Origin: Candidatus Tayloriibacteriota bacterium
GTDB taxonomy: Bacteria; Patescibacteriota; Minisyncoccia; Phycocordibacterales; PALSA-1337
DNA: 64,000 bases
Assembly (NCBI GenBank): GCA_943350765.1
Contig: CALRAJ010000003.1
Coordinates: 1,456-65,455 of the forward strand
Reading direction: 5' to 3'
Shown here: one piece after another, positions 3,158-61,751 of the stretch
Position numbering within the stretch: the stretch's first letter is position 1
Layout of the letters: every line of letters begins with the position of its first letter
The notes under the pieces: model-generated
Told to the model about the DNA's origin: nothing
The model's input: only the letters and a program-made list of their open reading frames with translations
Database searches by the model: none
Position numbers and translations under genes: made by a program

Positions 3158-3330
3158 TATTCTCCCTTAGTAAAGGCCATCTACAGGTGGTCTATCGGTT
3201 AGGGATAGACATCTGTGGACGATCGATCAACAAACGATCGACTCTGCACCGACAGTACTCTGGCGCGGAGGGATTTGAAACTTAAATCCCTCGGCCTGGA
3301 GCCTGCTCCCTTTACAAAGGGAGAATAATC
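3158..3330. mobile_element. MITE-like element family A, copy 1 (TIR TTATTCTCCCTTT..AAGGGAGAATAA)
   Basis: about 170 bp bounded by inverted ATTCTCCCTT / AAGGGAGAAT ends; internal sequence near-identical, inverted, to 4975-5118. Confidence 0.55.
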
Positions 3331-3912: not shown

Positions 3913-3950
3913 TTCCTATTTTTGGCCAGTCGTTCATTCGCCTGGTTTTT

Positions 3951-4133
3951 TTATTGCAATTGTGGAGAATACCCCGACGGCTTGCCGCGGGGATGAATCC
4001 GCAAGAATGAAGATGAGGTCGGCGGAGCCGACACATATGCAACAAAGTTTACCCTGATGTCTCGCCTAATACCCCGCCGAGGTACTCCGAGGGAATAGCT
4101 TGCTACGGGGATAGGACGAGACTAAACTTTATT
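3951..4133 (-). repeat. 183-bp GC-rich structured repeat, copy 1 (inverted relative to 47613-47785)
   Basis: reverse complement is about 96% identical (about 8 mismatches) to 47613-47785; contains hairpins CCCCGACGGCTTGCCGCGGGG and GTCGGCGGAGCCGAC. Confidence 0.7.
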
Positions 4134-4250
4134 TTCCCTAAAACATTTTGAGTACAAAATGTTCGGGCTAGCCCGGGAGTACCCATCGCCCTAGGGCGGT
4201 CAAATTTTATTGAATTTGGTTTAGCCTCTAAAATCATCTATACTTAGACC

Positions 4251-4974: not shown

Positions 4975-5118
4975 TTATTCTCCCTTTGAAAAGGGAGCAG
5001 ACCAGCAGGTCGAGGGATTTGAAATCTAGAAATCCATCCACGCCAGATTACTGTCGGTGAGTCGATCGTTTGTGATAGACACCTGTAGACGGTCCCTTTA
5101 GGAAAGGGAGAATAAATC
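4975..5118. mobile_element. MITE-like element family A, copy 2
   Basis: TTATTCTCCCTTTGAAAAGGGAG .. CCCTTTAGGAAAGGGAGAATAAATC inverted ends; interior is the reverse complement of the copy-1 interior. Confidence 0.55.
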
Positions 5119-5127
5119 AAAATGTAC

Positions 5128-5196
5128 GCGGCTATAGCCCCGACGCGCAAAGCGGTCGGGATCCCGACCAAAGCGTCGGGGCTCAGTCGGCAAGAA
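5128..5196 (+). repeat. partial duplicate of the tRNA-Lys 5' half with a 43-nt hairpin insertion
   Basis: GCGGCTATAGC + CCCGACGCGCAAAGCGGTCGGGATCCCGACCAAAGCGTCGGGG + CTCAGTCGG matches the tRNA-Lys 5' end GCGGCTATAGCTCAGTCGG. Confidence 0.5.
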
Positions 5197-5217
5197 TTTT
5201 GATACAATTAAATATAT

Positions 5218-5293
5218 GCGGCTATAGCTCAGTCGGTAGAGCACCTGCCTTTTAAGCAGAGGGTCGTTGGTTCGATTCCAACTAGCCGCACCA
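5218..5293 (+). tRNA. tRNA-Lys (anticodon TTT), CCA encoded
   Basis: cloverleaf: acceptor GCGGCTA/TAGCCGC, D-arm AGCTCAGTCGGTAGAGC, anticodon loop CTTTTAA, T-arm GTTGGTTCGATTCCAAC. Confidence 0.9.
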
Positions 5294-5499
5294 ATTTAAA
5301 AATCTCCCAAATTCATTTGGGAGATTTTTAAATTGGTGCGGCTAGAGCAAGCCGACTGCTCGGCTTGCGTTTGGAATCGAACAGCGGAGCCATGTTTTTC
5401 TACCAAGAAAAACGGGCGAGCTGGTGCCCAGACTTTTCCGAGCGACGGCGAGGAAAAAGTCGCGGGCGATAAATGTACCCATGGTCCAACTAGCCGCAA
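5294..5499 (+). repeat. tRNA-linked composite element, type II core (follows tRNA-Lys)
   Basis: 42-nt palindromic hairpin; inverted copy TGGTGCGGCTAG-[CUGC-loop hairpin]-TTGGAATCGAAC of the tRNA-Lys 3' end; core ..GGTGCCCAGAC-hairpin-AGTCGCGGGCGATAAATGTACCCATGGTC; direct copy CCAACTAGCCGCA. Confidence 0.6.
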
Positions 5500-9356: not shown

Positions 9357-9439
9357 TGGGAAATAAAGAAAACTGCCGACCAGAAGGTCGGCAGTTTTCT
9401 ATTTTGGTGCTCTTGGACAGACGCTTCGCTATCGAACTC

Positions 9440-9585
9440 CTGGGGAACCCCGTCTACAGGTGCACATCATCTACCGATGTGCCACGGTTCTCCCAATCCT
9501 TCCTCCACGGGAAAACGCCTGTTTTCCCGACCCCTTTCCTGTTCGATTCCTGCCAGGAACGCAACAAACAGCTACGCCTTTTTTG
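9440..9585 (-). repeat. tRNA-linked composite element, type I core (follows tRNA-Arg-GCG on minus strand)
   Basis: inverted T-arm copy GTTCGATTCCTGCCAGGA 9541-9558, then minus-strand core GGGTCGGGAAAACAGGCGTTTTCCCGTGGAGGAA..; degenerate direct copy of the tRNA 3' end near 9406-9420. Confidence 0.55.
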
Positions 9586-9657
9586 TGCTCCTGGCAGGAA
9601 TCGAACCTGCATTTCTCCCTTCGCAGGGGAGTGTCCTATCCGTTGAACGACAAGAGC
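9586..9657 (-). tRNA. tRNA-Arg (anticodon GCG, unusual for bacteria)
   Basis: minus-strand cloverleaf: acceptor GCTCTTG/CAGGAGC, anticodon stem CTCCC/GGGAG, loop CTGCGAA, T-arm GCAGGTTCGATTCCTGC. Confidence 0.75.
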
Positions 9658-9667
9658 GGTAGGTAAA

Positions 9668-9809
9668 CCCCAAATTATGGAATACCGTCGCGGGCGTATC
9701 TTTTTGAAAGACTTCGGAAGCGGGTAGCTGAGACTTGAGAGATTTCTTACCAAAGAAATACTCGTGCTTTCAAAAAGATACGCTAAGAAAGGTGTTTCGT
9801 AATTTGGGG
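9668..9809. mobile_element. MITE-like element family B copy with TAAA target-site duplication
   Basis: TIRs CCCCAAATTATGGAATACC / GGTGTTTCGTAATTTGGGG; TAAA on both flanks; internal hairpin GCGTATCTTTTTGAAAG..CTTTCAAAAAGATACGC enclosing the conserved core GCGGGTAGCTGAGACTTGAGAGATTTCT. Confidence 0.6.
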
Positions 9810-10478: not shown

Positions 10479-10565
10479 AGGATGGGTGCCAGAGTGGTCT
10501 AATGGAACAGTCTTGAAAACTGTCGCCTTCGCAAGGGGGCCGTGAGTTCGAATCTCACCCCATCC
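10479..10565 (+). tRNA. tRNA-Ser (anticodon TGA), type II, no encoded CCA
   Basis: acceptor GGATGGG/CCCATCC, anticodon stem ACAGT/ACTGT, loop CTTGAAA, long variable arm, T-arm GTGAGTTCGAATCTCAC. Confidence 0.9.
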
Positions 10566-10860
10566 GCAGAGGAACGAAGTGAATAAGGAATGGGTGAGTT
10601 CGAACTGGAAGGGGGTCGGGGAAAATGGCGTTTCCCCGTGGAGGAAAACAACGAGTACTCGAGTGTTAGAAACCGTGGGTTTCTAAAACGCAGGCTACTG
10701 CCGAGCAGTGAGGTTCTCACCCCATCCGCCTTCGGTCCGCCGGAGCAGACCTACGGCGTGACGCAGTCCGCCAGTGGGTTTGCATAGGCGACCTTCGCCA
10801 TACTGAAGCATGGCTACGGCGTAAAAAAGTCCGCAGTAATTATGCGTCGACTTTCGCTAG
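10566..10860 (+). repeat. tRNA-linked composite element, type I core (follows tRNA-Ser)
   Basis: inverted T-arm copy GGAATGGGTGAGTTCGAAC 10586-10604; core GGGGGTCGGGGAAAATGGCGTTTCCCCGTGGAGGAAAACAACGAGTACTCGAGTGTTAGAAACCGTGGGTTTCTAAA; direct copy CTCACCCCATCCGCC 10716-10730; tail CCGCCTTCGGTCCGC..GCGTGACGCAGTCCGC also found at 60160-60240. Confidence 0.6.
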
Positions 10861-10897: not shown

Positions 10898-11137
10898 ATG
10901 CATTATGTGTATAGTTTGAAATGTAAAGATGGTTATTATATTGGCTGTACCGATAATCTAAAAGATAGGATACTTAGGCACAAAGGAGGTAATGTGCCTG
11001 CTACCGCAAGTAGACTGTCCCTAGAGTTAGATTTCTATCTCGCGGTCAAGGATAAATACATAGCTTTTAATCTTGAGAAATATTTTAAATCTGGATCAGG
11101 TCGGACATTTATTAAAAAACATTTTATGACAATATAA
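10898..11137 (+). CDS. GIY-YIG nuclease domain protein (79 aa)
   Basis: YVYSLKCKDGYYIGCTDNLKDRILRH matches the GIY-(10aa)-YIG motif with downstream R and H. Confidence 0.7.
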   Translation: MHYVYSLKCKDGYYIGCTDNLKDRILRHKGGNVPATASRLSLELDFYLAVKDKYIAFNLEKYFKSGSGRTFIKKHFMTI

Positions 11138-18383: not shown

Positions 18384-18588
18384 TACTGTATATGCTGGAA
18401 AAAGCTTTTCATTTGAAACCAATTCAATACCAGCGTCTCCTGTTCTAATAAATACAAAATCACTAACCGAAACCATAGAAAAGTATGAGCAAAAAAGACT
18501 AAAGTTTAATTTTTTGCAACAGAATGGGGTGAGGAGCTTTGACCCATCTCTGTAAGAGTGCTATAGTCCTCGATAAGTAATAATAAAT

Positions 18589-18663
18589 GCCCTCGTAGTT
18601 CAATGGATAGAACTGCGGACTTCTAAGCCGTCAATGTTGGTTCGATTCCAACCGAGGGCACCA
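18589..18663 (+). tRNA. tRNA-Arg (anticodon TCT), CCA encoded
   Basis: acceptor GCCCTCG/CGAGGGC, anticodon loop CTTCTAA (A31-G39 mismatch in stem), T-arm GTTGGTTCGATTCCAAC. Confidence 0.85.
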
Positions 18664-19027
18664 AATAAACCTGTAAGGGTTTTTTGTGCAACCTCGGTTG
18701 GAATCGAACCGGAAAGGGGTCGGGGAACGGGAGTTCCCCGTGGAGGAAAACAACGAGTACTCGAGTGTTAGAAACCGTGGGTTTCTAAAGAGCCCGACAC
18801 ACGGAGGGCGAGTGAGATAGCGAAGCGCCCAACCGAGGGCACAAAAAAATGCGGAGCACTTTTTGTGCCCTCGAGCAGGCAAACTGCTTTGCCTGCGGGT
18901 CGGAATCGAACAGCGGAGTCATGTTTTTATACCAAGAAAAACAGGCGAGCTGGTGCCCAGACCAAAGTTTTTGACGAAAAACTTTGAGTCGCGGGCGATA
19001 AATGTACTCATGGTCCAACCGAGGGTT
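18664..19027 (+). repeat. tRNA-linked composite elements: type I core then type II core in tandem (follow tRNA-Arg-TCT)
   Basis: inverted copy CAACCTCGGTTGGAATCGAACC 18689-18710; type I core 18715-18792; direct copy CCCAACCGAGGGCACA 18828-18843; inverted TGTGCCCTCG-[CUGC hairpin]-GGTCGGAATCGAAC 18863-18910; type II core ..GGTGCCCAGACC-hairpin-AGTCGCGGGCGATAAATGTACTCATGGTC; direct copy CAACCGAGGG 19015-19026. Confidence 0.6.
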
Positions 19028-19062
19028 TGATTTCGGTATTAAAAAGTGTATTATGGTTTCAT

Positions 19063-27215: not shown

Positions 27216-27271
27216 TAATAATTAGAAAGTAGAAACAAAACCACCGAGCCATGCTCGGTGGTTTTGTTTGT

Positions 27272-27439
27272 TGGTGCGCGATGAGGGAATCTTTTTCCCT
27301 AGAGGACGGTCACCGTCGCTGAGCACTTTTTTGTTCGCGAGTACACTAAAAAAAGTGCTCAGCGAGGCTTCAAGTCCCTACGCAAAGCGTACCCACGCTT
27401 TGCTCATCACATACGAAAAAATCCCTTTCGGGATTGTTT
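27272..27439 (-). repeat. tRNA-linked composite element (follows tRNA-Val on minus strand; core is one long hairpin)
   Basis: inverted T-arm copy GAGGCTTCAAGTCCCTACGC; hairpin GCTGAGCACTTTTTT..AAAAAAAGTGCTCAGC; direct copy TGGTGCGCGATGAGGGA of the tRNA-Val 3' end at 27272-27288. Confidence 0.55.
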
Positions 27440-27515
27440 TGGTGCGCGATGAGGGACTTGAACCCCCGACCTTTCCAGTGTAAATGGACTGCTCTACCAA
27501 CTGAGCTAATCGCGC
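27440..27515 (-). tRNA. tRNA-Val (anticodon TAC), CCA encoded
   Basis: minus-strand cloverleaf: acceptor GCGCGAT/ATCGCGC, D-arm AGCTCAGTTGGTAGAGC, anticodon loop TTTACAC, T-arm GGGGGTTCAAGTCCCTC. Confidence 0.9.
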
Positions 27516-29284: not shown

Positions 29285-29364
29285 GTAGTAACTTGTTCGG
29301 AATTAAAATAAAAAACACATAGGTTAGCCCCAATCCATGTGCGTGTCGTATTTGGTGAAATGAG

Positions 29365-29568
29365 CTACCGACTGACCATGTAGTACTGGCGAGGACTGCC
29401 TCGCTGGACGACATGAAGCGCTTTCGTTGTAGGCTGGACATCGTTGACTCGGACCACCGTTCTTCCTGGAAAGGACGCATCAACCCTTTCGCAGGTACTG
29501 CACCCAGAAAGCATGAGTGCGACTATGGCAAACAGACCGATAAACCAAAGATTTTTCGTTGTTTTCAA
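29365..29568 (-). CDS. small lipoprotein (67 aa)
   Basis: signal peptide with lipobox MKTTKNLWFIGLFAIVALMLSGC. Confidence 0.4.
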   Translation of the reverse strand: MKTTKNLWFIGLFAIVALMLSGCSTCERVDASFPGRTVVRVNDVQPTTKALHVVQRGSPRQYYMVSR

Positions 29569-29679
29569 TCTTTTTCACCTCCGTTCATCCAAGATTCTTA
29601 CTACTAGCAAGTCTACGCCCGATAGGCTGTTTTAGCAAATGTGTGTTTGCGCGTGTGTGATTTCTGCTATACTATCCTC

Positions 29680-30292: not shown

Positions 30293-30366
30293 GGTGGCTA
30301 TAGTTTAGTGGTAAAACTCCGGTTTGTGGAACCGGTATCGAGAGTCCGATTCTCTCTAGCCACCCA
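30293..30366 (+). tRNA. tRNA-His (anticodon GTG) with encoded G-1
   Basis: G-1 paired to discriminator C; acceptor GTGGCTA/TAGCCAC; anticodon stem CCGGT/ACCGG, loop TTGTGGA; T-arm GAGAGTCCGATTCTCTC. Confidence 0.85.
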
Positions 30367-30408
30367 AAAATAATGAGACAAACGCGGAGCGTTTGTCGAC
30401 TGTATTTT

Positions 30409-30537
30409 TGGCATGGTTAGAGAGAATCGGACGACGGAGCGGGGTACCCACATAACAATGTGGGTCGCGAGTCGGTGCCCAGACCGAGGCGAGTGGCGAC
30501 GAGCCTTGAGTCGCGGGAGATTCTCTCTAGCCACCCC
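30409..30537 (+). repeat. tRNA-linked composite element, type II core (follows tRNA-His)
   Basis: terminator hairpin GACAAACGCGGAGCGTTTGTC; inverted copy TGGCATGGTTAGAGAGAATCGGAC; GACGGAG; hairpin ACCCACATAACAATGTGGGT; GTCGGTGCCCAGACC; hairpin CGAGGCGAGTGGCGACGAGCCTTG; AGTCGCGGG; direct copy AGATTCTCTCTAGCCACCCC. Confidence 0.6.
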
Positions 30538-30588
30538 ACATTTGTTTTATTATGTGACTTTTTATCACTAACTCGGTATACTTACTAA

Positions 30589-36270: not shown

Positions 36271-36871
36271 ATGCTTTCAAAAAAAACGCACAAGGTGTCC
36301 ATTATGTCAGTCATTGAATACAGTAAAAAATGGTAGTGGAGATCATGGCCAAAGATACAGATGTAATGATTGTAACAAGAGGTTTAGGTTGAAAGATTAC
36401 AAGAAAGAAAAAGAATCTGAATATATATGGAACGAATTTGTGTTTGCAAAGCAAACACTCAGAGAGTTGTCAGAAATATTTTCATACACTAAAAAACAAC
36501 TCCAAAGAATCTTTGATGGTATACAAATCACACAAAAGATTCACACCCCACGAGCACTACACCTCGTAGTTGATGCCACCTACTTTGGAATGAAGGAAAC
36601 TAGGCTTTGGGGAGTACTAGTTTTTCGAGATCAAACCAACAAAGAGAATCTATGGTGGCAATTCATAGATGAAGAAAGAATACACTACTACAGAGAAGGT
36701 AGAGACTACCTTCTCTCTCTGGGGTATACAATACTATCTGTCACCTGTGATGGATTCAGTGGCTTACCTGAGCTATTTTCACCCATTCCTGTACAGTTCT
36801 GTCACTTTCACCAAGCCCAGATCGTGAGAAGGTATACAACACTTAATCCGAGTTTTTTGCTCAGTTGCTGA
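36271..36871 (+). pseudogene. IS1-family transposase remnant (InsA-like zinc finger plus InsB-like DDE region), frameshifted at an A8 tract and C-terminally truncated
   Basis: with one A removed from the A8 tract (36279-36286) the ORF reads MLSKKRTRCPLCQSLNTVKNGSGDHGQRYRCNDCNKRF, matching the IS1 InsA CPxC..VRNG..QRYxCxxC finger; downstream VVDATYFG and TCDGFSGLP align with IS1 InsB D residues; the ORF stops where the third catalytic residue is expected, and the GC-rich segment begins there. Confidence 0.6.
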
Positions 36872-37545
36872 CTACCGTCAAACCTGGCCAGATGGATCAT
36901 AAACGGATGCAGGCTGCGATTAAGGACCCCCAGCTCACCGAGCGCATGTATGCGTTCGTTAATGGTTACGAGGTTGCGCCACTGCAGGTGGTTATCCCTC
37001 CAGTCGTGGAGCTGGCAACTTTTATCCCCCTCCACCTCTCGATCCCGCTCGCCACTCACAAGGCCCGCTCGATGTCGGAGCTTTTCCGCAATCGTGGCAA
37101 GGTCATCTTCTACTACCGCGATGGCGACCTCGACGGTTGGTTCACCGCGAACTCCCCACAGTGCCCAGCTGGCACCGCCTCCCTCGTCAAAACCCCCAGG
37201 GCAATGACGTTCCGGCAGATGGCGCAGTCGGCCACTGGACTCCAGTCTGAGTCCCTCGCCGACCTCTCCCGTGCCATTGTCACCAAAGGCCTCGACATCG
37301 TCCCCACCCAATGGGACGACGCTATCGGCGCCACTCAGAACGGCACGGATCTTCTCCTCGTCAACGGCTATGCCAACTTCGCTTTTACGAAGACAGACAA
37401 GAAGCTCAAAGATGAGAATCAACAGGTAGTCGTGCTCTGCGCCCGCCGCGACGACGACGGCCGGTGGGGCGCCGGCGTCTGCGGGCTCGACAACGACGAC
37501 GAGTGGAACGCCGACTACAGGCTTCTCCTCCGCAACTCGCCCTAG
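36865..37545 (+). CDS. DGR target (variable) protein; C-terminal 35 codons encoded by VR
   Basis: GC-rich (about 60%) ORF; its 3' 106 bp is the A-mutagenised homologue of the TR; C-terminus ..LCARRDDDGRWGAGVCGLDNDDEWNADYRLLLRNSP; start uncertain (TTG 36865 or ATG 36892). Confidence 0.7.
   Translation: MLTTVKPGQMDHKRMQAAIKDPQLTERMYAFVNGYEVAPLQVVIPPVVELATFIPLHLSIPLATHKARSMSELFRNRGKVIFYYRDGDLDGWFTANSPQCPAGTASLVKTPRAMTFRQMAQSATGLQSESLADLSRAIVTKGLDIVPTQWDDAIGATQNGTDLLLVNGYANFAFTKTDKKLKDENQQVVVLCARRDDDGRWGAGVCGLDNDDEWNADYRLLLRNSP
37433..37538 (+). repeat. DGR variable repeat (VR)
   Basis: 106-bp ungapped alignment to TR 37788-37893 with 16 mismatches, 14 at TR adenines (11 A>G, 1 A>C, 2 A>T); identical 3' IMH-like GGCTTCTCCTCCGCAACTC, then palindrome GCCCTAGGGC. 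Confidence 0.85.
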
Positions 37546-37571
37546 GGCACTTTTGCCCTTTGACACTTCTT

Positions 37572-37603
37572 CCCCCAGCACTACGGTGCTGGGGGATTTT
37601 TTT
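37572..37603 (+). terminator. rho-independent terminator after the DGR target gene
   Basis: CCCCCAGCACTACGGTGCTGGGGG hairpin plus T7. Confidence 0.65.
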
Positions 37604-37787
37604 ATAAAATTTGATATACTGCCATTTAGGATTTGCTGACATACTCGGCGTAAGCTTGGTATGGCGAGTCCTGCAACATTCAAAAAAGAAATAGTTGGTG
37701 CCTCACTCTGGTGAGAAAAAGTCTCAAAATACTATTCAGCCCCAAGAGAATTCAAAGGGTGTTGTAATAGATGGAGCGAGGTACAAA

Positions 37788-37893
37788 TGCTCTACGCCAA
37801 CCGCAACGACGACGGCCAGTGGAATGCGAACGTCAACAGGCTCGACAACGACAACGAGTGGAACGCCGACAACAGGCTTCTCCTCCGCAACTC
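37788..37893 (+). repeat. DGR template repeat (TR)
   Basis: AAC/AAT-rich in the VR reading frame (MLYANRNDDGQWNANVNRLDNDNEWNADNRLLLRN); followed by hairpin CTCCCGCTTACTGCGGGAG plus T-run. Confidence 0.85.
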
Positions 37894-37908
37894 TTGCTTT
37901 TCTCCCGC

Positions 37909-38253
37909 TTACTGCGGGAGTTTTTGTTCTATGGAATAGATCCAGCCATGAAGCATCTTTCCGGCAGCGACCAATTTTTCATTTAGTAAGATAAACTTCT
38001 TGTCCTCGAATATGTTCATCTCCCAGCCAACAGATAAGAAGAATTTGATCAGATCCAAGTGCTCCTGAGCAGCCTTTATTAGAAGTATTTTTTGTTCGCC
38101 ACTACAATAGGTGGCCTGGTAAATTGACCTCAATGCCTCGGTGAAATAATCTTCAATTTTTGAAGCAATGCCAAATCGTACTGGTTTCGGTAAATTTTCG
38201 CTGTATGTAAACCATAGAGAATATGTTTCTTTCAGGTGTTGTAGCACTGGCAA
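37909..38253 (-). CDS. avd: Avd-like accessory variability determinant (four-helix-bundle, 23S rRNA IVS protein family)
   Basis: 114 aa, TTG start; LPKPVRFGIASKIEDYF.. and LLIKAAQEHLDLIKFFLSVGW helices match the Avd/IVS four-helix-bundle pattern; minus strand, divergent from the RT. Confidence 0.65.
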   Translation of the reverse strand: MPVLQHLKETYSLWFTYSENLPKPVRFGIASKIEDYFTEALRSIYQATYCSGEQKILLIKAAQEHLDLIKFFLSVGWEMNIFEDKKFILLNEKLVAAGKMLHGWIYSIEQKLPQ

Positions 38254-38261
38254 AATCGTGC

Positions 38262-38271
38262 GGGGGGGGGG
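38262..38271. repeat. G10 homopolymeric tract in the avd/RT divergent intergenic spacer
   Basis: CGGGGGGGGGGT, 14 nt upstream of the RT ATG, 9 nt from the avd start. Confidence 0.8.
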
Positions 38272-38284
38272 TAGACTTTGTAGT

Positions 38285-39319
38285 ATGGCTCGGATTCAAC
38301 TGATTCATACCTATCAGCATATCATTTCTGTTGAAAATTTGCTTTCAGCGTTGAGAGAATTTACCAAGGGCAAAAAGCAGAAAAAAGATGTCCAACAATT
38401 CTCACTTCGTCTGATGGATAATATTTTGAAACTCCATCGAGATCTTGCGGATAGAACTTATGTACATGGAGATTATCACGCTTTCAATATTTCCGATCCA
38501 AAGCCACGCAATATTCACAAAGCACTGGTGCGAGACAGACTGGTACATCACGCTATATACAGAGTGTTGTGCCCCTTTTTTGACCGTACTTTCATCAGTG
38601 ATTCGTATTCGTGTCGTCTGTATAAAGGCACACATCGAGCACTGAATCGGTTTAGGGATTTTGGACAAAAAGTTTCAAAAAATAACACACGCACCTGTTG
38701 GGTTTTGAAATGTGATGTGAGGAAGTTTTTTGCTTCTATTGACCACGGCGTCTTGTTCGCTATTCTAGAGCAGTATATTCCAGATAAAGATATCCTATGG
38801 CTACTCACTCGAGTGATCGATAGTTTCCATTCTACCCGTTTTGGTGTCGGACTTCCTCTCGGCAATCTCACATCACAGCTTCTAGTGAATATTTATATGA
38901 ACGAGTTTGACCAGTATATGAAGCATCGGCTTAAGGCCAAACACTATATTCGATATGCTGACGATTTTGTTATTTTGAGTAATGATAAAAAACGGCTCGA
39001 AAATATTTTGATAGAAATTAGTGACTTTTTGCAAGTAAAGCTTCGCCTGAATCTTCATCCAGACAAAGTGTTCATAAAAACATTTGCATCAGGTGTAGAT
39101 TTCCTTGGCTGGGTACACTTTTCTGACCATAGGGTACTGAGGACTTCCACCAAGAAAAGAATGTTTAAACGATTGGCTGAGGGAGAGGTATCGGAGACGA
39201 CCATCCTTTCGTATTTAGGCATGCTGAGTCATGGTAATGGGATGGGGTTGCAAGAGATGATTACTGGGCTGTCAGGATTGAATTTGGCTGGCGGAGGTAT
39301 GAGTGATAGTAAAACTTAA
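38285..39319 (+). CDS. DGR reverse transcriptase
   Basis: RT motifs 1-2 PKPRNIHKALVRDRLVHHAIYRVL, A WVLKCDVRKFFASIDH, B' GLPLGNLTSQLLVNIYMNEFD (SQ in place of group II SP, the DGR hallmark), C YIRYADDFVIL, D LRLNLHPDK, E GVDFLGW; start taken at ATG 38285 (MARIQL) rather than the ORF-track start 38168. Confidence 0.85.
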   Translation: MARIQLIHTYQHIISVENLLSALREFTKGKKQKKDVQQFSLRLMDNILKLHRDLADRTYVHGDYHAFNISDPKPRNIHKALVRDRLVHHAIYRVLCPFFDRTFISDSYSCRLYKGTHRALNRFRDFGQKVSKNNTRTCWVLKCDVRKFFASIDHGVLFAILEQYIPDKDILWLLTRVIDSFHSTRFGVGLPLGNLTSQLLVNIYMNEFDQYMKHRLKAKHYIRYADDFVILSNDKKRLENILIEISDFLQVKLRLNLHPDKVFIKTFASGVDFLGWVHFSDHRVLRTSTKKRMFKRLAEGEVSETTILSYLGMLSHGNGMGLQEMITGLSGLNLAGGGMSDSKT

Positions 39320-44181: not shown

Positions 44182-44423
44182 CCCCGAATTACGAAATACC
44201 GTCTACATGTGTCGATCATAAACGATCGACCCTTTCTTGGCATATCTTTTTGAAGCCTATCGGTTAGGGATAGGCATCTGTAGACGAAGCCCTCGTATTT
44301 TCTTGCTAGAAAATCTCTCAAGTCTCAGCTACCCTGCTTGCGCCGTCTACAGGGACACATCATCTAAACGATGTGAAAGTCTTTCAAAAAGATACGCCTG
44401 CGACAGTATTTCGTAATTCGGGG
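44182..44423. mobile_element. MITE-like element family B (composite) with 7-bp TAAAATA target-site duplication
   Basis: TIRs CCCCGAATTACGAAATACCGTC / GACAGTATTTCGTAATTCGGGG; TAAAATA at 44175-44181 and 44424-44430; core TCTTGCTAGAAAATCTCTCAAGTCTCAGCTACCC plus a segment (TATCGGTTAGGGATAGGCATCTGTAGACG) shared with family A. Confidence 0.65.
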
Positions 44424-44482
44424 TAAAATAAAAAAGCTGTCGGGTGAACGACAGCTCGGGACAATCTTTGTATGGGTGATAA

Positions 44483-47533: not shown

Positions 47534-47612
47534 GAAATATTTGAGTATTTTCTGGGTGTAATTTTTGACCTAGATGCGACCTTTTCCGCGGCGTACTCGC
47601 CGCGGGTTGTTA

Positions 47613-47870
47613 AATAAAGTTTAGCCTCGTCCTATCCCCGTAGCAAGCTATTCCCTCGGATTACCTCGGCGGGGTATTAGGCGAGGCATCAGGGTAAACT
47701 TTGTTGCAGAAGTGTCGGCTCCGCCGACTTCATCTTCATTCTTGCGGATTCATCCCCGCGGCAAGCCGTCGGGGTATTCTCCACAATTGCAATAAAGTTT
47801 AGTCTCGTCCTATTCCAGCGACAAGCTGTCGGGGTTATTATCCACAATTACAATAAAAAAACCACCCCTA
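47613..47870 (+). repeat. 183-bp structured repeat, copy 2 (47613-47785), plus internally deleted tandem partial copy (47781-47870)
   Basis: about 96% identical to the reverse complement of 3951-4133; the partial copy retains the 5' AATAAAGTTTAGTCTCGTCCTAT and 3' GTCGGGGTTATTATCCACAATTACAATAAA ends. Confidence 0.7.
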
Positions 47871-51021: not shown

Positions 51022-51144
51022 CACGAAGTTCTTTATCGGCATATCTTTTAAATGGCACGAGTATTTTCTTGCTAGAAAATCTCTCAAGTCTCAGCTACCC
51101 GCTTCCGAAGTCCATTTAAAAGATACGCCTTCAACGAACTTCGT
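51022..51144 (+). mobile_element. MITE-like element family B copy in the nusG-rplK spacer
   Basis: about 28-bp imperfect TIRs CACGAAGTTCTTTATCGGCATATCTTTT / AAAAGATACGCCTTCAACGAACTTCGTG; core TCTTGCTAGAAAATCTCTCAAGTCTCAGCTACCC. Confidence 0.6.
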
Positions 51145-53071: not shown

Positions 53072-53192
53072 CCAAACTTCGTTGAAGGCGTATCTTTTAA
53101 ATGGACTTCGGAGGTGGGTAACCGAGACTTGAGAGATTTTCTACCAAGAAAATACTCGTGCCATTTAAAAGATGTGCCGAGAAAGAAGTTTG
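53072..53192 (-). mobile_element. MITE-like element family B copy (inverted orientation)
   Basis: TIRs CCAAACTTCGTTGAAGGCGTATCTTTT / AAAAGATGTGCCGAGAAAGAAGTTTGG; core is the reverse complement of the 51022-51144 copy. Confidence 0.6.
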
Positions 53193-53224
53193 GAATTGAA
53201 AATGTACCCTTTTAATAAAACAAC

Positions 53225-59895: not shown

Positions 59896-59984
59896 GGAGA
59901 GATGGATGAGTGGCTTAAATCAACGGTTTACTAAACCGTCGTTCCCTAACAGGAACCGTGGGTTCGAATCCCACTCTCTCCGCA
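59896..59984 (+). tRNA. type II tRNA (Ser-like) with unusual anticodon loop TTACTAA (nominal anticodon ACT)
   Basis: acceptor GGAGAGA/TCTCTCC, 3-bp D-stem, anticodon stem ACGGT/ACCGT, long variable arm CGTTCCCTAACAGGAAC, T-arm GTGGGTTCGAATCCCAC. Confidence 0.65.
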
Positions 59985-60024
59985 AACGGCCCAAAAAGAA
60001 AGAAGTTCTTTTTGGGTAGCCGTT

Positions 60025-60360
60025 GCGCGAGAGAGTGGGATTCGAACGCCGGAACTCATAATTTTCAGTAGAAAATTTAGTGAGGCGGTGCCCAGACAAA
60101 TTTTTTCGACGGAAAAAATTTAGTCGCGGGCGAAAAACGTACTCGTGGTCTCGCTCTCTCCGCCTTCGGTCCGCAGTAGCTTGGCTTCGGAGTGACACAG
60201 TCCGCAGAAGATGAGCGAAGGCGGGAAGGGGATTCGAAGCCAGATTGAGTATTTTTTCGATTTTGTAATCAAATGAAGAAAAAATCCAATCGGGGTACTG
60301 AAACTGTAAGTTTCGAAAAGCGTACTCGTGGTCTCGCTCTCTTTTCGATACTGCCATTGA
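60025..60360 (+). repeat. tRNA-linked composite element, type II core (follows the type II tRNA), with additional partial duplication
   Basis: terminator hairpin 59986-60024; inverted copy GCGCGAGAGAGTGGGATTCGAAC; hairpin CTCATAATTTTCAGTAGAAAATTTAGTGAG; GCGGTGCCCAGAC; hairpin AAATTTTTTCGACGGAAAAAATTT; AGTCGCGGGCGAAAAACGTACTCGTGGTC; direct copy TCGCTCTCTCCGCC; second direct copy at 60322-60350. Confidence 0.6.
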
Positions 60361-60923: not shown

Positions 60924-60940
60924 ACAATGAGGTCAGCCAC
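60924..60940 (+). repeat. 17-bp direct repeat ACAATGAGGTCAGCCAC, copy 1
   Basis: identical to 61572-61588; together they flank ORF 61016-61561. Confidence 0.7.
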
Positions 60941-61015
60941 CACTTGCCCGAACATATTATCAAAAATAATTATGGCTGACCTTATTATCATTATTACAGT
61001 TGATAAACTACTAAA

Positions 61016-61561: not shown

Positions 61562-61571
61562 ATACAATGAT

Positions 61572-61588
61572 ACAATGAGGTCAGCCAC
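61572..61588 (+). repeat. 17-bp direct repeat ACAATGAGGTCAGCCAC, copy 2
   Basis: identical to 60924-60940. Confidence 0.7.
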
Positions 61589-61705
61589 AATTCTTTTTGA
61601 TAATATGTTCGGGGGAACGGTGGCTAACCTTACTAATTTTTCAGTAGAAAATTTAGTAAGGCGCTGCCCAGACCAAAGTTTTTGACGAAAAACTTTGAAT
61701 ATCGG
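61589..61705 (+). repeat. orphan type II composite element (no tRNA)
   Basis: inverted partial copy GGTGGCTAACC of the preceding GGTCAGCCAC; hairpin CTTACTAATTTTTCAGTAGAAAATTTAGTAAG; GCGCTGCCCAGACC; hairpin CAAAGTTTTTGACGAAAAACTTTG identical to that in 18965-18988. Confidence 0.55.
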
Positions 61706-61751
61706 GAGAAATTCTTACTCACTTATCCATAAATAGAATTAACGTAAACCT

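Follow-up and report, generated by a model that had tools for sequence, protein, structure and literature searches.

Genomic islands and prophages that enter the ends of tRNA, tmRNA or protein genes by means of an integrase bring with them a replacement terminus that keeps the gene intact, and the old terminus stays at the far side as a direct, often imperfect, repeat. This repeat starts in the T-loop, and new arrivals stack beside the gene. We have found the same arrangement in small modules located at the 3' end of most tRNA genes in a stretch of 64,000 nucleotides (hereafter the window: positions 1,456 to 65,455 of contig CALRAJ010000003.1, assembly GCA_943350765.1) of Candidatus Tayloriibacteriota bacterium, a member of the Patescibacteria. 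But these modules, of ~150–250 bp each, have no integrase, use one core at dozens of unrelated targets and always carry an inverted copy of the target, and what is conserved in them is an RNA-like core and not protein genes. Direct repeats of the target segment are present, as in attL/attR pairs, no recombinase recurs near ~120 loci, and the use of a single or a few att sites is not seen. Our preferred reading, to which we give a probability of roughly one half, is that the modules are protein-less mini-insertions at gene ends that replace and displace the termini of the genes they enter.

Other described systems are similar in part. Miniature inverted-repeat transposable elements (MITEs) and the pneumococcal BOX/RUP, Neisseria Correia and REP/BIME families are also short, multi-copy, protein-less, hairpin-rich and modular, and lie at gene ends in genomes that exchange DNA. 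However, a MITE has element-specific terminal inverted repeats and short target duplications of fixed length, whereas the arms of the modules are copied from the target, are locus-specific and measure 12–70 nt, and the direct copies, which reach the gene boundary, go from 12 to ~70 nt; neither conserved terminal inverted repeats nor a target duplication of fixed length were found in the modules. The omega RNA of IS200/IS605 elements takes its guide from the flanking DNA, and the modules resemble it in having, at the 3' end, a structured scaffold and, immediately after it, a guide-length piece of sequence that comes from the flank and is set anew at each site. They differ in that neither TnpB nor TnpA is encoded nearby and there is no target-adjacent motif, and also in the duplicated target and the complementary arm; no tnpB or iscB open reading frame (ORF) was present in any locus and the bases before the breakpoint were, by eye, not conserved. 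The single-stranded attP of CTX-phi likewise has an inverted repeat that lets one strand rebuild the target duplex beside the element body, but it imitates one fixed site (dif) for XerCD, while the site imitated by the modules varies by locus. As in tRNA-like signals (plant mitochondrial t-elements, mascRNA), a 7-bp acceptor helix, a 5-bp T-stem helix and the discriminator are predicted in long-type modules, the helices for those of tRNA-Lys and tRNA-His; unlike in those signals, a helix and a three-way junction take the place of the T-loop, and the mimicry follows the copying of the neighbour and is absent at protein genes. Finally, there is complementarity between the arm on the 5' side of the core and the sequence just downstream, sometimes also upstream, of the breakpoint, in the order of the internal guide of group I introns (P1/P10). 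Patescibacteria are rich in tRNA group I introns, which are reported at position 35/36, and group II introns are reported to be absent from the phylum (PMC13011429). The modules differ from such introns in the lack of an Rfam group I match, in a core of just 85–110 nt, in being found also antisense to the gene and in leaving a gene that is complete unspliced. These introns were the nearest thing in the literature searched, which gave no description of such modules, and, as far as these tools can show, the modules lie outside every known kind of element in Rfam 15 and that literature.

Modules copy the end of the adjacent gene

ARAGORN and Rfam gave the same set of eight dispersed tRNA genes in the window. 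Seven of them carry modules at their 3' side, and the order, in tRNA orientation, is spacer, inverted copy, core and direct copy (X2; the corresponding end of the gene itself is called X1). The inverted copy goes from about position 53 of the tRNA (T-loop) through the 3' end, and X2 contains the 3' strand of the T-stem, the 3' strand of the acceptor and the discriminator. The inserts measure 150–450 bp and have no long ORF inside; two or more modules are stacked at Arg-TCT, Ser-TGA and Ser-ACT. An earlier note on this DNA had claimed such a composite architecture after seven of eight tRNA genes, and the reading of all seven loci confirms it. It had also counted two conserved cores, when the types in the window number at least four: A (Lys, second module of Arg-TCT, His, first module of Ser-ACT), B (Arg-GCG, Ser-TGA, first module of Arg-TCT), the Val type at Val and D in the second module of Ser-ACT. 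The core motifs are absent from the rest of the window except for one decayed orphan core A, which is probably the mark of a decayed module (all coordinates are in Table 1). The tRNA-Leu gene is, as had been claimed, the only one without a module, with longest direct and inverted matches of 5 nt. A small lipoprotein-like convergent ORF (29285–29590, minus strand) adjoins it immediately downstream, so that free intergenic space there is nil.

The copies are specific for the adjacent tRNA. When the last 14 nt of each tRNA were compared with its own downstream 480 nt, the longest exact run was 14 nt for Lys, Ser-TGA, Val and His, 13 for Arg-TCT, 10 for Ser-ACT, 7 for Arg-GCG and 5 for Leu, and the longest direct run in the downstream regions of other tRNAs was 7 nt. 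The earlier note had itself named the case that would speak against it, copies no more similar to the adjacent tRNA than to others; the six loci with direct runs of 10–14 nt, against 7 nt or less elsewhere, indicate the opposite. The inverted runs were 9 (Lys), 10 (Arg-GCG), 7 (Ser-TGA), 11 (Arg-TCT), 6 (Val), 5 (Leu), 7 (His) and 11 nt (Ser-ACT), with a maximum of 8 in the downstream regions of other tRNAs, that is, above the own values of Ser-TGA, Val and His (6–7). At Arg-GCG the direct copy has decayed and the inverted copy is clear over 13–19 nt. Related loci gave 65 tRNAs; direct copies of 9 nt or more lay downstream of 36 and upstream of two, and inverted copies downstream of 19 and upstream of none.

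To the right of core A, GUCGCGGG(C/A)GA is followed by sequence of the adjacent tRNA that starts at T-loop position 56/57 and goes as far as the discriminator, in most cases with 'C(A)' after it. This X2 is exact over 13–22 nt in most loci, follows tRNA-specific variants of the T-loop (CAAATC vs CGAATC) and, where the orthologous loci L011 and L018 differ in the T-stem, differs in step. The left arm is a genuine inverted copy. We discarded that it might be a direct copy of the 5' strands of the tRNA, because its T-loop is reverse-complemented and because, at a U-G pair, the Arg-GCG arm is complementary to the 3' strand and does not have the sequence of the 5' strand. An optional hairpin with an ACUGCU loop divides the arm between its acceptor and T-stem parts. 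The palindrome often runs through the spacer into the gene flank (Lys, His, Ser-ACT, second module of Arg-TCT), and that of the tRNA-Lys spacer extends into X1 and the inverted copy. Upstream of some tRNAs, tRNA-Lys included, there is a mirror-image arrangement with direct nt 1–18, the same type of hairpin and inverted nt 8–16; the upstream duplicate of the 5' half of tRNA-Lys that had been claimed is real.

X2 had a CCA missing from the gene in five cases and the opposite was seen in three, and most X2 copies have the gene's 'CA' flank and not CCA. These figures, together with the palindromes that reach the gene flank, led us to reject copying by reverse transcription of mature tRNA; the copies therefore derive from the gene or the primary transcript. 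In tRNA genes without an encoded CCA, 'CA' almost always comes directly after the discriminator, and the same is true of the displaced copies (window, L003-L115). The inverted copy is closer to the in-gene X1 than to X2 in 83 of the 94 modules with core B and in 29 of the 30 with core A. The arm therefore goes with the terminus nearest to the gene, and it is the distal copy that stands apart.

The spacer was claimed to be a terminator-like hairpin in every element. By a simple heuristic, a hairpin plus T-run follows the tRNA in 12 of 36 module-bearing tRNAs, and X2 in seven of 36; by this count the claim appears to hold for about a third of them, with no such hairpin at Ser-TGA and Arg-GCG, and the terminator part of a suggested terminator or processing module appears to fit a minority only. 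The spacers between tRNA and module fall into conserved types common to different species and tRNA identities. One type is GAACGAAGTGAGTGA-like, and another is structured as TGAACCG..GGACTGCTAAACGCAGTCC..CGGCTCATCATTGCG (window 10571-10586; L115, L017, L053; L003, L034, L105).

Structure and distribution of the cores

Core A folds as a three-way junction with a CNNC:GNNG helix, a GGA/GA internal loop, a covarying hairpin with an AGCA loop and a further hairpin, GCCC-a-GAC...GUC-gc-GGGC, with a GAC(G) loop. In an alignment of 36 sequences, 93.4% of the cells were paired, against 33–46% when the partners were slid by 1–3 columns. Cells with double changes numbered 275 against 85.5 in shuffles, and none of 500 shuffles reached 275. 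G-U outnumbered A-C (28 vs 10) in favour of the tRNA strand, and the plus strand folded more stably in every genuine copy. These compensatory changes and strand asymmetry argue that the tRNA strand encodes core A as a conserved, folded RNA. A gene on the minus strand with a shared bidirectional terminator is disfavoured by the G-U and A-C counts, and because promoter-like motifs that face the modules are lacking. That GGUGCCCAGAC and GUCGCGGG are invariant is an ascertainment effect, both being the search pattern for core A. A covariance model built from the core A copies also recovered diverged relatives (GGGGUCGCGG...GUGACC). In core B, hairpin 1 covaries, the more stable strand is plus in 71 of 96 copies and minus in 20, and a very stable GCGAAGC mini-hairpin stands at the 3' end. 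Rfam at gathering threshold gave only the tRNAs in the window, and Rfam 15 at E <= 10 gave only the tRNA and chance miRNA-like hairpin matches to the palindrome over 18560–19060, which contains both core A and core B; the two cores have no Rfam 15 family, the families of group I introns, known ribozymes, tmRNA and omega-type RNAs in that database included. Among the possibilities raised before were small RNA genes with ends that mimic the tRNA. The cores do look like structured RNAs on the tRNA strand, by covariation and G-U bias, but mimicry by design is not what we see, for the modules copy whichever gene end adjoins.

We scanned one genome per species with an exact core A pattern and obtained at least 120 stretches. 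Among the matches listed, the genuine ones come from Saccharibacteria, Paceibacterota, Taylor-, Wolfe- and Nomurabacteria and Minisyncoccia, and the others are chance matches in GC-rich coding DNA. In 31 of the 39 genuine copies a tRNA gene (Gly, Ser, Pro, Thr, Arg, Ile, Glu, Lys, Ala or Val) lies on the same strand 29–265 nt upstream, and the other eight are at contig edges, follow a tRNA missed by ARAGORN or follow a truncated or IS-disrupted remnant. Among the matches listed for cores A and B, modules have so far been found only in Patescibacteria. The scan of 2.9 million viral contigs gave only two chance matches to core A, again in GC-rich coding DNA, and a phage origin was rejected for this lack of genuine copies.

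Core B goes beyond tRNA genes. A metagenome scan gave at least 121 copies, and among the 121 listed 66 follow a tRNA on the same strand (32 anticodon types), five are at contig edges and ~50 (~40%) lie elsewhere. Those inspected among the non-tRNA copies adjoined protein genes, at the 3' end if the gene was on the same strand and at the 5' end if it was divergent. By eye, from the short encoded peptide, several of the ends were named as DnaK, LepA-like, DnaX, L7/L12 (rplL) and L11, and one 982-aa ABC ATPase was read as UvrA. The layout is the same as at tRNAs, i.e., a terminus, an inverted copy around a breakpoint 'a', core B and a second terminus copy starting from 'a', and the inverted arm may extend a few nt upstream of the breakpoint (L251, L202). 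Flanking direct repeats were significant (score of at least 26) in 24 of 45 non-tRNA and 38 of 61 tRNA cases, against 2–3 in shuffled controls. Both terminus copies of protein genes retain their own start or stop codon, and over eight gene ends (leaving out one mis-framed case) the codon differences between in-gene and distal copies were 37 synonymous against 9 non-synonymous. The copies have diverged under purifying selection, and each was therefore once a working gene end. Such homeologous termini appear to have been joined by recombination between diverged lineages. As to the suggestion of miniature mobile elements that target tRNAs, we keep the mobile part as likely, but a targeting of tRNAs alone is too narrow for the ~40% of listed core B copies at protein-gene ends.

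The neighbourhood of the modules offers no partner. Clustering of the ORFs of 120 loci gave housekeeping families and a few LAGLIDADG ORFs only, and no gene for a recombinase, TnpB, IscB or Cas adjoins any of ~160 copies. The LAGLIDADG homing-endonuclease-like ORFs are in four of the 120 core B loci (L226 and three other metagenome loci). A stand-alone 79-aa GIY-YIG ORF (10898–11137) lies directly 3' of the Ser-TGA module in the window; it was rejected as a partner nuclease, not being near other modules.

There are signs of turnover. Over 4,041 nt, as far as tRNA-Lys extends, the window and L121, which is a contig of a different assembly, are 100% identical; beyond that point L121 lacks a CCA, its terminator is not the same, and it carries a core B module whose arms are Lys-specific, together with a core A that is truncated. 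Modules are also where other contigs of this organism break off. In relatives with the orthologous gene downstream, the tRNA is followed by a plain terminator and no module. These relatives came from a search for empty sites through the gene downstream of tRNA-His, a route that we discarded; they are at most 60% identical and have tRNA-Asp there, which only shows that plain tRNA-plus-terminator loci exist. Where modules are stacked, the inner X2 makes a palindrome together with the spacer and arm that come next, which looks as though this X2 was formerly a functional gene end, and distal copies match a version of the tRNA other than the present one at Ser-ACT and in L082. An IS30-family transposase (HTH_38 + rve) lies between a tRNA-Leu module and a second module in L059 (1001–3443), and its end sequence GTTCGGACTAATTCAA also abuts a module in L114; palindromic module DNA may be a hot spot for IS30.

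Individual loci of the window

Table 1. Coordinates, within the window, of tRNA genes and module parts (copies and cores are listed under the tRNA that they follow).
Feature	Positions	Strand	Remarks
Partial copy of tRNA-Lys 5' end, upstream	5128-5194	+	nt 1-11 at 5128-5138, GC-rich nested hairpin insert, nt 11-19 at 5182-5194
tRNA-Lys(UUU)	5218-5293	+	ARAGORN, Rfam; T-loop to 3' end is copy X1
Lys spacer hairpin	5294-5333	+	perfectly palindromic, A-run and T-run; looks like a bidirectional terminator
Lys inverted copy of 3' end	5334-5382	+	TGGTGCGGCTAG 5334-5345; TTTGGAATCGAAC 5370-5382
Lys H hairpin	5346-5369	+	ACTGCT loop; splits the inverted copy
Lys core A	5383-5469	+	covarying three-way junction; 111 bits
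Lys X2	5485-5498	+	14/14; T-stem 3' strand, acceptor 3' strand, discriminator; without CCA
tRNA-Arg(GCG)	9585-9657	-	ARAGORN
Arg-GCG inverted copy	9541-9559	-	T-arm/acceptor
Arg-GCG core B	9422-9540	-	long variant
Arg-GCG X2	9406-9421	-	decayed
tRNA-Ser(UGA) (Ser-TGA)	10480-10567	+	ARAGORN
Ser-TGA inverted copy	10587-10605	+	preceded by unstructured spacer with conserved GAACGAAGTGA motif
Ser-TGA core B	10606-10713	+	
Ser-TGA X2	10714-10730	+	
Ser-TGA tail after module	10731-10857	+	reiterated GTCCGC(C/A)
tRNA-Arg(UCU) (Arg-TCT)	18589-18663	+	ARAGORN
Arg-TCT inverted copy, module 1	18690-18710	+	
Arg-TCT core B, module 1	18711-18828	+	92% identity to Ser-TGA copy over 88 nt
Arg-TCT X2a	18829-18842	+	palindrome with following spacer and arm
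Arg-TCT spacer 2 and inverted copy 2	18843-18911	+	with H hairpin
Arg-TCT core A, module 2	18912-18998	+	
Arg-TCT X2b	19014-19025	+	
tRNA-Val(UAC)	27440-27515	-	ARAGORN
Val spacer	27412-27439	-	terminator-like
Val inverted copy	27369-27411	-	with H-like hairpin
Val-type core	27290-27368	-	long hairpin, terminal GCGACGGTGACCG
Val X2	27271-27289	-	with CCA, then terminator
tRNA-His(GUG)	30294-30365	+	ARAGORN
His spacer	30366-30409	+	imperfectly palindromic
His inverted copy	30410-30432	+	
His core A	30433-30520	+	97 bits
His X2	30521-30538	+	has CCA not encoded by the tRNA gene
tRNA-Ser (anticodon call ACT)	59896-59983	+	ARAGORN; type II tRNA
Ser-ACT palindromic spacer and inverted copy	59985-60047	+	
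Ser-ACT core A	60048-60133	+	
Ser-ACT X2a	60149-60164	+	T-stem version unlike that of the present tRNA
Ser-ACT core D, second module	60228-60331	+	
Ser-ACT X2b, second module	60332-60342	+	
Orphan degenerate core A	61619-61715	+	intergenic, no tRNA; 40.6 bits

Besides the tRNA genes, the window holds polA, rpsT, ruvA, rplS, argS, glyA, a sigma-70 factor gene and a diversity-generating retroelement, and its nearest protein relatives, labelled Taylorbacteria, Paceibacterota or Patescibacteria, are at most 60% identical; gene content and relatives put the window in the Patescibacteria. The reiterated tail behind the Ser-TGA module may consist of acceptor 3'-end relics of older modules. The ACT call (A34) of the last tRNA-Ser is unusual for bacteria, and the equivalent locus of relatives has GCT.

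The window contains other repeats. A family closed by a stem (core CACGAGTATTTTCTTGNTAGAAAATCTCTCAAGTCTCAGCTACCC) and with locus-specific inverted arms is found at 9693-9804, 44295-44424, 51029-51141 and 53075-53197, one of the copies lying just upstream of tRNA-Arg(GCG). A GC- and hairpin-rich dispersed inverted repeat of 185 bp (3950-4134 and 47612-47796; 96.8% identity) had no Rfam match at gathering threshold. Shorter inverted dispersed repeats with 83–85% identity pair 3226-3328 with 4975-5076 and 60930-60992 with 61566-61630, and one copy is just upstream of the 5' duplicate of tRNA-Lys. The diversity-generating retroelement (36865-39319), in a locally GC-rich region with reversed GC skew, has its variable repeat (37424-37538) at the 3' end of the ORF 36865-37545, a template repeat at 37779-37893 that is 83% identical and a 383-aa reverse transcriptase (RVT_1, 38168-39319). 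It was considered as a source of the modules' repeats and set aside; by eye, the repeat differences were not adenine-specific and the modules were not beside the reverse transcriptase.

Proposed origin and spread of the modules

Read in its own direction, a module consists of X1, contiguous with the intact gene, the spacer, the inverted copy, the core, apparently encoded as RNA on that strand, and X2, which begins exactly where the inverted copy ends. The inverted copy is predicted to pair with X1 in a long hairpin. If the modules are mini-insertions, a circular element made of terminus copy, spacer, arm and core would integrate Campbell-style at a homologous gene terminus; the terminus that we take as the incoming one would keep the gene whole and the resident one would be pushed to the far side. 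Later arrivals would insert beside the gene and shift the earlier modules away from it, in the way that islands accumulate at tRNA genes. Between lineages, the modules may spread by DNA uptake followed by recombination at the orthologous gene end, for which the terminus copies would supply the homology; the distal copies would for that reason stay gene-like, and cores would be exchanged between loci. On first arising at a new gene all three copies would come from resident sequence, e.g., by fold-back copying around the spacer hairpin, for which the near-palindromic T-loop TTCGAA could be the pivot that gives the forward-reverse-forward order. Our confidence in any specific insertion chemistry is low. 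It would be going further, and doubtful, to propose a new class of mobile elements whose constant part is a folded RNA or single-stranded DNA core and whose arms are rebuilt from the target at each insertion. Such a core-only element would move without a protein of its own, by strand joining guided by the arms and catalysed by the core or a host enzyme, or by fold-back copying, and would spread through competent Patescibacteria by swapping gene termini between lineages.

Several points weigh against the modules being mini-insertions. No enzyme gene is linked to them. Homologous recombination explains the spread among orthologous loci but not the first creation of X1, inverted copy and X2, and it leaves the constant T-loop breakpoints in tRNAs unexplained. 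Among the matches listed, core A is found only beside tRNAs, although the GAAC motif of the filter may itself be derived from the T-loop. The contig L121 is a single one and ends inside repeats, so that a strain mixture or an assembly join is possible. The comparison of orthologous tRNA loci proposed in the earlier note gave relatives without modules and a near-identical contig that differs, but no clean pair of filled and empty versions of one site was found in near-identical genomes. Lastly, the unpaired nucleotides of the core are strongly conserved across distant lineages, which is more typical of functional RNA than of selfish DNA.

The main rival takes up this conservation and sees in the modules cis-acting RNAs that serve the host, co-transcribed with the gene as a structured 3' (or 5') trailer. 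The copies would give a helix like the acceptor/T-arm stack of a tRNA, or like an mRNA end, to which RNase P, RNase Z or the CCA-adding enzyme would be recruited, which would keep exonucleases out, or which would alternate between two folds and so control maturation; the identity of the arms would be kept by selection or local gene conversion, and mobility would be incidental. We hold this unlikely on the whole. The covariation and strand bias of the core, its conserved loops and junction bases, the absence of a terminator between tRNA and module in two thirds of the modules with some terminators placed after X2, and the fact that X2 tracks the T-stem change of the tRNA at L011 and L018 are all in keeping with it. 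In the predicted minimum-energy fold of tRNA plus module, X2 closes the tRNA body and X1 pairs with the inverted copy, which would let read-through transcripts misfold or be processed in a tRNA-like manner; this is why such an RNA stays the main rival. But a terminator-like hairpin does precede a third of the modules, divergence of the distal copy would often prevent its pairing with the inverted copy, and modules antisense at the 5' end of a divergent protein gene are, for that reason, outside its transcript. Close relatives manage without modules, and the stacks, relics and orphan copies resemble accretion and not design.

We consider improbable that the modules are guide-bearing mobile elements with an unlinked enzyme, in which the core RNA would be the scaffold and the terminus copy and its complement the guides, re-read at each site, that direct cleavage or strand joining at unoccupied alleles (homing). 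The conserved scaffold of 85–110 nt is indeed followed at once by 13–22 nt (up to 70 nt) identical to the target, the arm that reaches upstream of the breakpoint in L251 and L202 is like an internal guide that pairs with both 'exons', and the synonymous recoding of in-gene copies relative to the distal ones would protect occupied alleles. Against this, none of the ~160 copies has a TnpB, IscB, Cas or recombinase gene beside it, no conserved motif was seen by eye upstream of the breakpoint, the two guides pair with each other, and in tRNAs X1 equals X2, so that self-targeting is not avoided.

It is less probable still that replication or repair gave rise to the modules as by-products. Forward-reverse-forward triplications would be made by fold-back priming on terminator hairpins together with switches of template within the conserved T-loop and D-loop blocks, and the cores would be functionless hairpin-rich DNA copied between loci. 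The order of the copies, palindromes that centre on the spacer hairpin and reach the gene flank, a breakpoint inside the T-loop TTCGAA and the mini-hairpin of core B all agree with this, but not the ~275 cells with compensatory changes, the strand bias, the unpaired bases kept over phylum-level distances or the same layout at more than 100 independent sites, and the homeologous termini require input from another lineage.

Ordinary integrase scars (attL/attR) of phages or islands later deleted are already largely refuted and hardly deserve any credit, since, in spite of tandem accretion and direct repeats over the classic identity block from T-loop to tRNA 3' end, the inserts of 150–450 bp lack recombinase remnants and always have the inverted copy, no genuine copy of core A was found in 2.9 million viral contigs, and one core family sits at more than 30 different tRNAs and many protein genes, so that no site-specific integrase could serve all. 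What stands of the attL/attR likeness that had been pointed out is the topology: an intact gene end beside the insert, a displaced far copy and tandem stacking.

The modules offer several new structured RNA families for study; they also break assemblies, with contigs that end inside them, and can confuse the annotation of tRNAs and gene ends. If the mini-insertion reading is true, the modules would be a major overlooked part of the streamlined genomes of Patescibacteria, present at seven of the eight tRNAs of the window and in hundreds of copies in groundwater metagenomes. DNA would be entering essential genes harmlessly by bringing a replacement terminus, without any obvious enzyme, and the modules would be visible traces that diverged lineages frequently recombine at housekeeping genes.

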